From an uncultured Chitinophagaceae bacterium (GTDB taxonomy: Bacteria; Bacteroidota; Bacteroidia; Chitinophagales; Chitinophagaceae), in the NCBI GenBank assembly GCA_964593835.1, contig CAZQIQ010000001.1:123464-187463 (forward strand): DNA of 64,000 bases, written 5' to 3'. The position numbers and the translations under genes were made by a program. This document shows positions 555 through 3,963 of the stretch, piece after piece (the stretch's first letter is position 1; each line of letters begins with the position of its first letter). Below the pieces are notes generated by a model that worked only from the letters and a program-made list of their open reading frames with translations, did no database searches and had not been told where the DNA came from.

Positions 555-1454
555 ATGAGGCGTATATCAGTTGTTTCTATATTAATAGTGTCATTCATGA
601 CGACTATACAGGCACAGAGTAGTTATCAGTCTAAGCTGATAGAATTGGGTGAGGCATATAAAAACTATATGTTTCGCGCTGAGCCGTCAAAAGCAGAGAT
701 AGAGGTCCTATTAAAGGATGTTCCCCCTGAACTGGAAAAAGCGACAGACTTCATGGTGCAAACATTGATTAGCAAAAACACCTTGTTAACCCCAAAGTAC
801 TTAGCCCTGCCCGAAAGTCCCACACTCACACAAGTCTATATTATACGTCACATCAGCTTTAACAGAGAACCGGAAGCTGATCTGCATCGCCTTATTGATA
901 GTCTTTCACAGCAGGTTTCTTCCAGAAACGACCTTATCGATAACTATTACGCCGTTTTGTTTTCGGCTGTGGGAAACAAAAAAGACCATTTTGACCTCTC
1001 TAAGGTAAATTTTGAATTAAATGAATACGGCCTCGAAAACGAGACTGAAAAAGGTATCTTTTTTCTTCAATGCCTTAATAGTTGTGGCAAAGAAATATGG
1101 GGGCTAATGAATTCCTCACGTCCCCCGAACACCCAAAAGGCAAATGCCCTATTGAAGAAGTTCCCCATGTTTAATGGCCGGAAGTACTATCATTATACAA
1201 GTTTTCACTTCCCCGATTTTAACCGTATCATCATTCCCGGACAGGCACCTCAGGGATATAAAAAATATTATATAGGACAGTATTATGAGGTATTGCTGTC
1301 GCATATGGTTTGCCTGCAAATGGAAAAAGGAAAGAATGCAGAAAAAGAAGACCTTCTGGTAAACTCTATTCTTACCGAAAGACTTTTTTACAAATACACC
1401 AAACATGAAGACAAACTGGACCAATACATTTTAGATCTGCAGGCCCCCAAGTAA
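555..1454 (+). CDS. hypothetical secreted protein
   Basis: ORF 435..1454. The internal ATG at 555 opens a typical signal peptide (MRRISVVSILIVSFMTTIQAQ). No family recognised. Confidence 0.6.
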   Translation: MRRISVVSILIVSFMTTIQAQSSYQSKLIELGEAYKNYMFRAEPSKAEIEVLLKDVPPELEKATDFMVQTLISKNTLLTPKYLALPESPTLTQVYIIRHISFNREPEADLHRLIDSLSQQVSSRNDLIDNYYAVLFSAVGNKKDHFDLSKVNFELNEYGLENETEKGIFFLQCLNSCGKEIWGLMNSSRPPNTQKANALLKKFPMFNGRKYYHYTSFHFPDFNRIIIPGQAPQGYKKYYIGQYYEVLLSHMVCLQMEKGKNAEKEDLLVNSILTERLFYKYTKHEDKLDQYILDLQAPK

Positions 1455-1707
1455 ACAGGGATATTCTGTGGGTTATTTCGTAAAAGTAATTTTAAGAAAG
1501 CATTGCAGGTACAGACTTTATTTTATACTTTGGCTGCCTGTTATGAATAATCAATCCATTTCCTATATCTATGCACATAAGCAATCTGTCCGCTCACCCC
1601 TCTTCTCTATAACTATATTTACATTACATTATACTATCCGTACTGCTTTCCAGTTAGGATAAATATATCATCTCAATATTCCAATATCTTAAACAAAATC
1701 ATGTATT

Positions 1708-2232
1708 ATGAAAAAAGTTCTCTTCTTATCCCTTATTACACTAATTTCCTTCGCTTCCTGCAAAAAAGATAAAGATGGCGGTTCCTCAGGAGTAAGCGAA
1801 GGCACAATTACCTTTAAAGTAGATGGCAAAGATATTACCTATAAAACATACGTAAACGCAGTAAAAAATGAGGGGGCGGATAATTACTTAGTAGCTATTG
1901 TTGGAATAAAAAGCCCTACCGATCCGGAGGGAGAAAACATCTTCATTAATTTAAACAGCAATTCAGCAATAACTGCTGGAACCTATCACGAGAAAGCTTT
2001 AAATGAAAATGCAGCAGTAATTTATTATAAGAATGATAAAGACGAACAATACTTAACTATTGAAAGCCCTGCCAATCCAACAATTGTCACCGTTACAAGC
2101 ATATCTGACAATTCTATCCAGGGAACATTTAAAGGGGAATTGTTCTTTATGAGTGGAGCTAGTGTTGATTTCGACAAGACTATCGCTATATCAGAGGGTA
2201 AATTCAATGCCAAAATAATATCAGGCCTCTAA
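1708..2232 (+). CDS. small lipoprotein, paralogous to 44376..44912
   Basis: Lipobox signal (LISFASCKKD). Shares the layout ...TxGTY...(I/V)T(I/V)xS(I/L)xxN..xGTFxG(E/D)xF...I(S/T)EGxF with the PUL-linked lipoprotein at 44376. Confidence 0.7.
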   Translation: MKKVLFLSLITLISFASCKKDKDGGSSGVSEGTITFKVDGKDITYKTYVNAVKNEGADNYLVAIVGIKSPTDPEGENIFINLNSNSAITAGTYHEKALNENAAVIYYKNDKDEQYLTIESPANPTIVTVTSISDNSIQGTFKGELFFMSGASVDFDKTIAISEGKFNAKIISGL

Positions 2233-2259: not shown

Positions 2260-2296
2260 AAAGAGAGTGAATCAAATTGATTCACTCTCTTTTTTT
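2260..2296. terminator. intrinsic terminator hairpin after the lipoprotein gene
   Basis: AAAGAGAGTGAATCA-aat-TGATTCACTCTCTTTTTTT, a perfect stem followed by a T-run. Confidence 0.6.
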
Positions 2297-2364: not shown

Positions 2365-2568
2365 CTAATCATCTACACGAAACGAGATTTTACAAATCAA
2401 CCCGTAGGTAGTTATTTTATTATCCTTAACATGAACTTTTATATCTTTTACATAAATAGAATCAATATTTCTAATTGACTTAGATGCTTCTTTTAAAGCG
2501 TTCTGGATAGCATCTTCAATACCGATTTCAGAAGAAGCAATCACTTCAATTACTTTTACAATTGGCAT
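2365..2568 (-). CDS. dodecin-family protein (67 aa)
   Basis: VKVIEVIASSEIGIEDAIQNALKEASKSIRNIDSIYVKDIK...YGLICKISFRVDD aligns by eye along its full length with bacterial dodecins (..ELVGTSEEGLEAAIQAAL..A.KTLR.LDWFEV...Y.V.LEVGFRLE.). Size is typical of the family. Confidence 0.85.
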   Translation of the reverse strand: MPIVKVIEVIASSEIGIEDAIQNALKEASKSIRNIDSIYVKDIKVHVKDNKITTYGLICKISFRVDD

Positions 2569-2583
2569 GACATTATGTTTTTG

Positions 2584-2633
2584 AATAAAAAAATAAATAA
2601 CAAAAGGGTTTTGGCGTATACCAAAACCCTTCG
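2584..2633 (-). terminator. riboswitch expression-platform terminator
   Basis: Minus strand reads CGAAGGGTTTTGG-tatacg-CCAAAACCCTTTTG followed by TTATTTATTTTTTTATT. It sits between the TPP aptamer and the dodecin start codon. Confidence 0.65.
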
Positions 2634-2635
2634 TG

Positions 2636-2740
2636 GCAATTCATCTTTCCTTCGCCAGCATTACCCGGATCAGGTTCGACGGGTTTGCTCTCAGATTTAA
2701 ATTACTGGATCACCAGTATCAAAATCACCCCCTTTAGAAT
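2636..2740 (-). promoter_or_regulatory. TPP (thiamine pyrophosphate, THI-box) riboswitch aptamer
   Basis: Minus strand reads GGGGGUGAUUUUGAUACUGGUGAUCCAGUAAUUUAAAUCUGAGAGCAAACCCGUCGAACCUGAUCCGGGUAAUGCUGGCGAAGGAAAGAUG. It contains the hallmark GGGGUG, CUGAGA, ACCC and GAACCUGAUCyGGrUAAUGCyrGCGnAGGrAA blocks in the correct order and spacing. Confidence 0.9.
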
Positions 2741-2748
2741 CACCACAA

Positions 2749-2756
2749 CCAATATA
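2749..2756 (-). promoter_or_regulatory. candidate Bacteroidota -7 promoter box for the riboswitch-dodecin transcript
   Basis: Minus strand TATATTGG, a near match to TAnnTTTG, lies about 10-15 nt upstream of the aptamer. Confidence 0.3.
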
Positions 2757-2903
2757 CTTAAAATCCTATGCCAACTATGTTTAGAGGCTCAGCTTATCAT
2801 TGAAGTATTATTGTAAATAAAACTGATGAATATTTACCATAATACGGGGTAATAAGGACTCAATACGTTGAAATTATATTATCTTTTCGCAAAGAACAGC
2901 GCT

Positions 2904-3116
2904 ATGGGGACAAATCCAATATTAGAACCACGAAAATTAAGGAGGATTTATAAGCTTCTTCAGATTATTTCTTTGATAATAGTTTTTGCAGGATTGCTCC
3001 TTAAGTTCACCGGATATTCAGATTATGTTCTTATAATCATCACAGGCATAGTCTTACTATTTCTTGTTGCACTGTTGCGATGGTTAACATTTCCTAACAG
3101 GAAAAAAGATATTTAA
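2904..3116 (+). CDS. small two-TM membrane protein (hypothetical)
   Basis: ORF 2868..3116 has a TTG start. The ATG at 2904 gives 70 aa with two hydrophobic segments. Confidence 0.35.
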   Translation: MGTNPILEPRKLRRIYKLLQIISLIIVFAGLLLKFTGYSDYVLIIITGIVLLFLVALLRWLTFPNRKKDI

Positions 3117-3366: not shown

Positions 3367-3963
3367 ATGAAGAATATTTTTCCTGTATCTATCTTGTTTG
3401 TATTTATATACTTTCAAAATACTATACTAAACGCACAAGCTGTTGATCCTGCAAAAACAGCAAAAGCAGCAGTGTTGAGTGATGCAAATTACATAGCCTC
3501 CACTATTGAATACAATGAAGACATCATCTATCTTTCGCAACAAGGAATTTCCCGTGGTGCCGACAGTCGTGTAAAAGAATTAGGGCAACTGATGATGGAA
3601 GACCATACTACGATGCTTTATTCGATGGAGCAATTACAAACTTCAGGTAAAGGAGCAAACACCCAGACCTTGCAACAAGGGAAACCCCGGTTAGCTATAG
3701 AAGTTAATAAAAAGATATCTACTGTTTCCGGAATGGACTTTGACTCTATCTGGACTGCCGGCCTGTTAGCTATTGTTCAGGAAAAGTATAATGGTCTTGC
3801 TGCAGCAGAAGAAGAAGCCAGGAACCCCCAATTAAAAGCTGCTATCAAAAGCAGTGGACCATTATTACGTAAACACATCACCCAGTTAAAGTCCACTCAA
3901 AAACACCTCACAAGAATAGCCACACAAAAACGAAAAGAAGAAGCCAATAAAGTAAAAAGATAA
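3367..3963 (+). CDS. DUF4142-like secreted protein
   Basis: Signal peptide, then ...RVKELGQLMMEDHTTM... and a second helical repeat typical of the DUF4142 (ferritin-like) family. Confidence 0.75.
   Translation: MKNIFPVSILFVFIYFQNTILNAQAVDPAKTAKAAVLSDANYIASTIEYNEDIIYLSQQGISRGADSRVKELGQLMMEDHTTMLYSMEQLQTSGKGANTQTLQQGKPRLAIEVNKKISTVSGMDFDSIWTAGLLAIVQEKYNGLAAAEEEARNPQLKAAIKSSGPLLRKHITQLKSTQKHLTRIATQKRKEEANKVKR

Follow-up and report, generated by a model that had tools for sequence, protein, structure and literature searches.

Thiamine pyrophosphate (TPP) riboswitches (Rfam RF00059), such as those of B. subtilis tenA/thiC and of the Bacteroides thiamine operons, share a P1-P5 three-way junction with a CUGAGA block and a P4/P5 arm that acts as a pyrophosphate sensor. 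Their cargo is a gene for thiamine biosynthesis, salvage or transport, and they have repeatedly led to thiamine transporters and salvage enzymes; OarX and other genes were assigned to thiamin salvage through their association with TPP riboswitches (PMC11223231). Dodecins that bind flavin or coenzyme A (CoA), such as Thermus thermophilus TTHA1431 (2CZ8/2V18) and Mycobacterium tuberculosis Rv1498A (3OQT), are proteins with a β-α-β-β fold of about 67 residues. Flavin binding by Rv1498A has been attributed mainly to a tryptophan, Trp39, and bacterial dodecins have also been reported to store CoA (PMC8044443). The locus described here joins the two. In a 64-kb stretch of contig CAZQIQ010000001.1 from an uncultured Chitinophagaceae bacterium (the window, 64,000 nucleotides), a TPP-type aptamer and a terminator make up the leader of a stand-alone dodecin gene that carries a serine in place of the tryptophan. 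This arrangement is best explained, with a probability of about 70%, as a functional TPP-sensing OFF riboswitch acting by transcription termination, recruited into the leader of a monocistronic Ser-type dodecin gene in one genus-level lineage of the Chitinophagaceae. An earlier note on this DNA was not aware of dodecins being listed as cargo of TPP riboswitches, and a full-text literature search likewise found no paper linking dodecin (DUF1458, COG3360) to TPP riboswitches or thiamine. The novelty is the cargo and not the mechanism, namely a known switch before a new gene family in one narrow lineage.

The unit lies on the minus strand and is described 5' to 3' in plus-strand coordinates. The THI-box aptamer (2746..2633) opens with the 5' strand of a 10-bp P1 (GUGGUGAUUC, 2746..2737), followed by GGGGGUG (2732..2726), an extended P3 hairpin that includes CUGG-UGAU-CCAG (2726..2694), CUGAGA (2694..2689) and ACCC (2684..2681), the last forming P2 as GGGU/ACCC. 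The P4/P5 arm (GAACCUGAUCCGGGUAAUGCUGGCGAAGGAAAG, 2677..2645) and the 3' strand of P1 (GAAUUGCCAC, 2642..2633) complete the aptamer. A terminator stem of 13 pairs (GAAGGGUUUUGGU/GCCAAAACCCUUU, loop AUAC, 2632..2603) abuts P1 with a spacer of 0 nt and is followed by a U-rich tract (2602..2584); it was the one terminator-like site found by the terminator scan between 2200 and 3200, where 0.2 were expected. The stem is separated by 35 nt from the ATG (2568..2566) of the dodecin coding sequence, which encodes 67 amino acids (aa) and whose stop codon ends at 2365. The THI-box hallmarks, the stem with its U-tract and the ATG at 2568 were thus all found where the earlier note had placed them. Its description of the unit as monocistronic is also borne out, since a perfect 16-bp hairpin (2260..2292), an inverted repeat common to the dodecin unit and to a convergent gene at 1708..2232, closes the unit together with that gene; no further minus-strand gene follows the dodecin.

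Rfam was searched in gathering mode, which returned no match in the window, and then in E-value reporting mode. In the latter, RF00059 was the sole match when the 64-kb window was compared with all 4227 Rfam families (E = 2.8e-7), and 2630..2742 aligned with the model at 51.9 bits (E = 2.6e-9 in a 601-nt search). The RF00059 match called for by the earlier note is therefore significant, although its score is below the gathering cutoff of 54.3 bits. In the alignment, the 5-bp P1 of the model is left unpaired (five 'v' marks), 18 nt are inserted in P3, and the optional P3a is deleted. Compared to other TPP riboswitches, P1 is unusually long, and it is offset from the Rfam model. The shortfall in score is due to this architecture, that is, the displaced 10-bp P1 and the 18-nt insertion in P3, while the core is intact. 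All of the ligand-contacting THI-box blocks are present at 2732..2645, comprising J3/2 CUGAGA, P2 GGGG/ACCC and the P4/P5 pattern ACCUGAUC..GG.UAAU.C..GCG.AGG. The same leader was found in two other genomes (loci L001 and L161), and in all three the minimum free energy fold from the first base of P1 is the canonical three-way junction with a 10-bp P1, a P2/P3 arm and a P4/P5 arm, followed by the terminator. We conclude that the RNA is a genuine TPP-type aptamer, with about 2.4 bits lost to its architecture relative to the curated threshold, and it is predicted to bind TPP. The aptamers of L001 (2830-2935, 50.5 bits) and L161 (2330-2435, 52.8 bits) also score under the cutoff. Since the three lie between 50.5 and 52.8 bits, standard annotation pipelines would miss the riboswitches of this lineage, and the Rfam gathering cutoff misses real TPP riboswitches with a long, offset P1.

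As in other TPP riboswitches, the terminator follows directly after P1 and the predicted logic is OFF. Transcription would probably start about 12 nt 3' of a promoter-like element, TGGCAY-N5-TTT (TGGCATAGGATTTT, 2773..2760, minus strand), which is placed 13 nt from P1 (2759..2747) and which would also drive the dodecin orthologues that have no riboswitch. With TPP bound, P1 and P2 would be locked, and the abutting 13-bp hairpin and U-tract would terminate transcription. When TPP is scarce, the invariant ACCC(G/A)UCG from the 3' strand of P2 would instead form pairs with the CGAAGGGU of the terminator base, and polymerase would read into the dodecin gene. Dodecin synthesis would then require both an active specialised promoter and low TPP. 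The riboswitch of the window differs from described TPP riboswitches in having no clear anti-terminator and in standing behind a rare sigma-54-like motif. A separate observation from the folds is that with the P1 5' strand single-stranded, the A-rich 3' strand of P1 (GGAAAGAUGAAUUG) pairs with the U-rich tract beyond the terminator (2584-2650, minus strand); this lengthens the terminator helix by about 12 bp in the window fold and does not occur in the L001 fold.

The genomes of L001 and L161 are diverged from that of the window, yet the leader arrangement 5' of the dodecin orthologue (96% and 97% protein identity, respectively) is the same. The three share a synteny of SLT - DUF4260 - DUF4142 - riboswitch - dodecin - lipoprotein. 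The dodecin coding sequences of L161 and L001 differ from that of the window at 22-27 of 204 nt (11-13%), with 19-23 synonymous and 2-3 non-synonymous codon changes (23 versus 3 in L001). Judging from these counts, the coding sequence is under strong purifying selection and the gene is presumably expressed. The 53-nt aptamer core is nearly invariant across the three genomes. All 10 variable helix positions remain paired, with a C-G to U-A double change in P1 and nine wobble-compatible single changes spread over P1, P3 and the terminator. L001 and L161 have kept the terminator, in which two substitutions leave the pairing intact. Over the three genomes, 98.4% of helix cells are paired, compared to 39-57% when the partners are slid by 1-3 columns. 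The three-way junction is thus seen in the folds of three genomes and in variation that preserves pairing among n = 3 sequences, which is supportive of the proposed structure, short of proof. Since the leader is kept in diverged genomes, its helices stay paired and the coding sequence appears to be selected, the switch is likely to be maintained. A MAFFT alignment of four aptamers was rejected as the basis of a covariance model, since its 5' half was misaligned owing to the differing P3 lengths.

The distribution of the arrangement was followed in 80 loci from genomes, 80 from metagenomes and another 16 contigs from the closest relatives. Aptamers were sought with regular expressions, with an nhmmer profile of the ungapped 53-nt core, and with Rfam. 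A strict and then a looser THI-box expression missed the aptamer of locus L005, and the nhmmer profile was used instead; nhmmer matches in L048 and L117/L123 were excluded from the counts as partial or at locus edges, that of L048 being unconfirmed by Rfam. The dodecin protein is extremely conserved, with more than 100 clusters at 77-100% identity, and is encoded in the genomes of at least 533 species; most of these are Chitinophagaceae, joined by some Saprospiraceae and Cytophagales and by a Flavobacterium. Among the loci examined, a TPP aptamer on the same strand directly 5' of dodecin is present only in the window, L001 and L161. None of about 170 other orthologous loci (73-92% protein identity) has a leader riboswitch, and no relative at 92% identity or less has a leader TPP aptamer. 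Among distant Ser-type dodecins, the contigs of P0153 and P0162 were too short to show their context, and L169 had no TPP core. In several relatives with P0006, P0008 and P0004 synteny, the gap 5' of dodecin is 46-114 nt, which leaves no room for a riboswitch. As a result of this confinement to one narrow lineage, the linkage that the earlier note proposed to survey in relatives is real in two of them but is not generalisable to dodecins.

The promoter-like motif offers some insight into how the arrangement arose. In the form TGGCA(C/T)-N5-TT(T/G), it occurs once in the 64-kb window and is found up to 300 nt 5' of dodecin in 25 of 166 loci (including L003, L004, L082-L084 and L162-L167), compared to an expectation of 0.02 per locus. 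Its spacing is sigma-54-like (-24/-12), but it has TTT where sigma-54 promoters have TGC. In loci with no riboswitch, the distance from the motif to the dodecin ATG is 35-90 nt, and in the nearest of these relatives (89-92% identity; L082, L083 and L162-167) it is exactly 50 nt. In the three riboswitch-bearing loci the distance is 201-205 nt (205 nt in the window, about 203 nt in L001 and L161). The simplest reading is that an aptamer-plus-terminator module of about 150 nt lies between the gene's own specialised promoter and its ATG. The riboswitch would thus have been recruited before an existing gene, with the relatives at 89-92% identity as a natural 'before' state. The motif also occurs 5' of DUF4142 genes, of genes for small hydrophilic proteins and a 72-aa acidic protein, and of a PhzF-family gene; the idea of a thiamine-specific motif was rejected since DUF4142 and other unrelated genes follow it. 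It is probably the promoter of an alternative-sigma, perhaps stress-type, regulon in the Chitinophagaceae. Since it is also found 5' of TPP aptamers that are not part of a dodecin leader (L005 and L006, with degenerate forms in L068 and L021), it may have arrived with the module. Given that hundreds of near-identical dodecin genes do without it, the riboswitch appears to be a recent regulatory add-on and is no proof that dodecin handles thiamine.

The identity of the protein is clear. As the earlier note had expected, it matches the Pfam Dodecin family (PF07311) at 88.8 bits against a cutoff of 22.5, with residues 3-66 aligned to profile positions 1-64 of 64. The AlphaFold2 model of the monomer (predicted local distance difference test, pLDDT = 94.1) has the β-α-β-β fold, with strands at 4-13, 35-48 and 51-64 and a helix at 17-28. 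A Foldseek search identified dodecins as the top 29 structural matches in the PDB, including the Thermus dodecin 2CZ8 (template modeling score, TM = 0.89; root-mean-square deviation, RMSD = 1.5 Å). Compared to the flavin/CoA dodecins as a group, the protein belongs to the same Pfam family and superimposes with TM scores of 0.85-0.89 and RMSDs of 1.5-1.7 Å at 30-32% identity, and the C-terminal FR motif is conserved. The NCBIfam equivalog DodecBact (NF043052) gives 65.4 against a cutoff of 75.

The pocket differs from that of the flavin binders. In a phmmer alignment to the Thermus dodecin, Trp38, Arg45 and Gln57 are matched by Ser37, Lys44 and Gly56, respectively; the alignment of Trp38 with a serine made by eye in the earlier note was therefore correct, and the flavin-stacking tryptophan (T. 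thermophilus W38, M. tuberculosis W39, Hs W36) is replaced. Two further residues, His46 and Cys59, are invariant in the subfamily of the window protein and have no counterpart in the flavin binders. The M. tuberculosis calcium dodecin Rv0379 (3ONR), one of the structural matches (TM = 0.77-0.80), has the dodecin fold but is not a canonical flavin binder, and demonstrates that the fold can serve other ligands. Its sequence relation to the window protein is weak (phmmer E = 0.65), and nothing suggests that the latter binds calcium. No variation was seen at Ser37, Asn34, Asp36, Lys44, His46, Cys59 or Arg64 across all 120 close homologues, which with few exceptions are unregulated. In the wider family, represented by the nearest 149 clusters at 50% identity (P0121-P0269), 120 have serine at the tryptophan position and 5 have tryptophan. 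Since Ser37 is shared by a huge branch, and nearly all of the orthologous genes examined have no riboswitch, the altered pocket long predates the riboswitch. The suggestion that the serine fits an altered ligand in connection with TPP control thus loses its footing; Ser37 is not diagnostic of thiamine and, as far as the sequences go, thiamine binding by the dodecin is unsupported.

The surroundings of other dodecin genes were also searched for links to TPP. Further TPP aptamers lie 0.2-2.3 kb from riboswitch-less orthologues in four arrangements (L005, L006, L068 and L021/L098). The aptamer of L005 (64.8 bits) is divergent from dodecin, as is that of L068 from Chitinophaga eiseniae (2642-2741, minus strand, 55.2 bits), which is about 300 nt from the gene. 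An intact aptamer in L006 (3660-3758, minus strand, 64.7 bits) has its own terminator (3633-3664) and is convergent or antisense. In L021 (5294-5387, minus strand) and L098 (4156-4201, minus strand) a degenerate TPP-like element (43 bits) has CUGGGA for CUGAGA and a terminator. The nearby aptamers are singletons, and a dodecin protein identical to that of L005 occurs elsewhere with no riboswitch (L170-172). At an uncalibrated guess of one aptamer per Mb, fewer than one would be expected in the roughly 0.8 Mb covered, and the excess is a weak hint of association.

Some details of these elements are of interest in themselves. The L068 riboswitch precedes HAD-family hydrolase, PRTase_3 (ComF-like) and TerD-like genes (1611-2336 and 769-1611, minus strand), which is unusual cargo. 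The L006 riboswitch has no downstream open reading frame (ORF) on its own strand and points, in antisense orientation, at a 110-aa ORF and the dodecin gene; it may control an antisense transcript or be an orphan. An inversion of the dodecin segment, by which the L006 module would once have driven dodecin, was considered and dropped when no flanking inverted repeats were found. The element of L021 and L098, kept in both loci, stands in antisense orientation where a dodecin - NDH-2-like oxidoreductase - DUF326 string has its 3' end.

In 20 of 166 loci, and thus more often than any other neighbour, a fused 2-oxoacid dehydrogenase E1 of about 806 aa (E1_dh + Transket_pyr + Transketolase_C), which is TPP-dependent, lies directly upstream of dodecin on the same strand, at 54-640 nt (L007, L008, L011, L014, L018, L020, L023, L036, L039, L055, L060, L071, L099, L100, L107, L115, L126, L134, L141 and L147). 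Other recurrent neighbours are Gly_transporter/UPF0126 (19 loci), PhzF (13), DCC1-like (10) and MoxR (9). The E1 adjacency may be a single inherited synteny, and it could just as well be a sign of a link to CoA. None of the surveyed loci was seen to have a gene for thiamine biosynthesis or transport beside it.

Several observations weigh against a working TPP switch in front of the dodecin gene. The aptamer falls below the Rfam gathering cutoff in three of three genomes, and its neighbourhood in the window showed neither a thiamine gene nor a second TPP aptamer. Since about 170 orthologous loci do without a riboswitch, TPP regulation is not needed for the function of the protein generally. The power of the covariation analysis is low because only three genomes of one lineage have the riboswitch, and a shuffle control (249/500) was uninformative with three sequences. 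No anti-terminator was found with ViennaRNA. In the nascent RNA, the candidate, in which ACCC(G/A)UCG of the P2 3' strand and J2/4 pairs with CGAAGGGU, falls short of the aptamer fold by 6.5-9 kcal/mol in stability. Every ensemble gives the terminator a probability of about 1, also when the 5' strand of P1 is blocked, and enforcing the ACCC.UCG:CGAAGGGU helix, blocking P1 and folding nascent lengths each favoured the terminator. A 10-bp P1 might also form in the absence of ligand. Ligand-dependent switching, the direction of regulation and the anti-terminator are therefore predictions, as is the repression of dodecin at abundant TPP claimed in the earlier note, for which thermodynamic modelling gave no anti-terminator. 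Taken further, these points would make the element a switch that does not work, with a constitutive terminator serving as an attenuator or yielding a stable terminated small RNA, and with dodecin expression due to read-through or to a cryptic start within the AT-rich 35 nt before the ATG; alternatively, the aptamer may have drifted to a ligand other than TPP. The apparently orphan or antisense TPP aptamers with terminators in L006 and L021 would fit such a case. It is nevertheless considered unlikely, since all of the ligand-contacting blocks are intact, the loss in score is explained by the offset of P1 and the insertion in P3, and a separate promoter would hardly fit into the 35 nt that separate the terminator stem from the ATG. 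Neither co-transcriptional kinetics nor tertiary contacts enter into thermodynamic folding, which routinely misses switching in proven riboswitches, and for this reason the missing anti-terminator is a caveat and not a refutation. In addition, six of the six TPP leaders compared in the family have A(A/G)GGG at the 5' base of the terminator, complementary to the invariant ACCC, a hint that favours the candidate anti-terminator.

A working riboswitch may still say little about its cargo. A TPP module could have landed by duplication or rearrangement before a general stress or cofactor-buffer dodecin, where its regulation is tolerated or mildly useful and uninformative on the ligand. Such a fortuitous capture, which overlaps with the functional OFF riboswitch in the probability given to it, is possible if rather doubtful. 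At least 533 species have the gene, but the linkage does not extend beyond one narrow lineage; the protein differs hardly at all from its unregulated orthologues, and the presence of the motif before DUF4142, small hydrophilic and PhzF-family genes suggests a stress-type regulon unrelated to thiamine. The leaders of L001 and L006 also share the promoter motif CTGGCACAGAATTTTA and the start of P2, GGGGTGGTTT, which is compatible with one mobile module. However, the aptamer and terminator have stayed intact while about a third of the dodecin codons changed synonymously, a useless attenuator before a selected gene would be expected to decay or vanish, and the proximity of other TPP aptamers is apparently non-random. 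The opposite possibility is that the dodecin itself is a thiamine-related binder, its Ser-type pocket binding thiamine, TPP, hydroxymethylpyrimidine (HMP), thiazole or a degradation product and scavenging or chaperoning it when TPP is scarce, in which case the riboswitch would reveal the function of the whole Chitinophagaceae Ser-type subfamily. Direct control by a TPP riboswitch argues for this, as do the changes of the flavin-stacking tryptophan to serine and of Thermus Gln57 to glycine, given that flavin binding depends mainly on the tryptophan (PMC8044443). Further points in its favor are the TPP aptamers near riboswitch-less orthologues in four independent arrangements, the TPP-dependent E1 as the commonest neighbour, the calcium dodecin 3ONR as a precedent for a non-flavin ligand, and the assignment of OarX to thiamin salvage from a like association (PMC11223231). 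This possibility is judged to be unlikely since the pocket residues are identical in the riboswitch-less orthologues examined, the nearby aptamers are singletons that are antisense to dodecin or point away from it at an uncalibrated background density, a single inheritance in one sub-clade may account for the E1 synteny, and no gene for thiamine biosynthesis or transport stands beside the surveyed loci. Its broader form is a little less likely again, and would hold that the Ser-type dodecins (120 of 149) are not flavin stores but bind thiamine, TPP, a precursor or a breakdown product as a starvation-induced scavenger or a cofactor chaperone for TPP enzymes such as the adjacent E1. A thiamine-related ligand for dodecin is therefore improbable overall; if such a ligand were correct for the Ser-type dodecins, the riboswitch would be the first regulatory clue to the function of the branch. 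The thiamine buffer proposed in the earlier note is a poor fit with the OFF logic, by which the protein would be made when TPP is scarce, and a scavenger or salvage role suits that logic better than a store. From the earlier interpretation as a whole, the genuine TPP-type aptamer and the terminator platform, kept in three genomes, are retained, whereas the serine argument, the buffer role and the generality of the linkage are not.

With the preferred reading of a TPP-sensing OFF riboswitch recruited to a Ser-type dodecin gene, the locus invites comparison with OarX. Both are genes of unclear role with a TPP riboswitch on their 5' side, the association being used as a functional clue, but OarX is tied to riboswitches and thiamin genes in diverse bacteria, whereas the dodecin linkage is limited to one narrow lineage with no adjacent thiamin genes. 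A new cargo family is nonetheless a concrete functional lead. The cargo lies in a huge branch of dodecins that has no tryptophan and no known ligand, and as a small and easily expressed protein it could give this branch a function. The narrow distribution limits the impact of the finding, and the association may prove to be fortuitous.

Other features of the family and the locus may be described briefly. The tryptophan of the 5 representatives noted above is the classic one of the D-W-F-E motif. Many Ser-type dodecins have a different conserved tryptophan, at position 17 of the query (motif S-W-E-D-A), where the window protein has isoleucine. Several of the dodecin representatives (P0121-P0269) are longer, at up to 502 aa, with the dodecin domain embedded. 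No second copy of dodecin was found in the 64-kb window. Divergent from the promoter region of the riboswitch is an 82-aa ORF (2868-3116, plus strand) for which two hydrophobic segments are predicted. L001 and L161 do not share this ORF and have a 253-aa gene or nothing in its place; it is probably spurious or lineage-specific.

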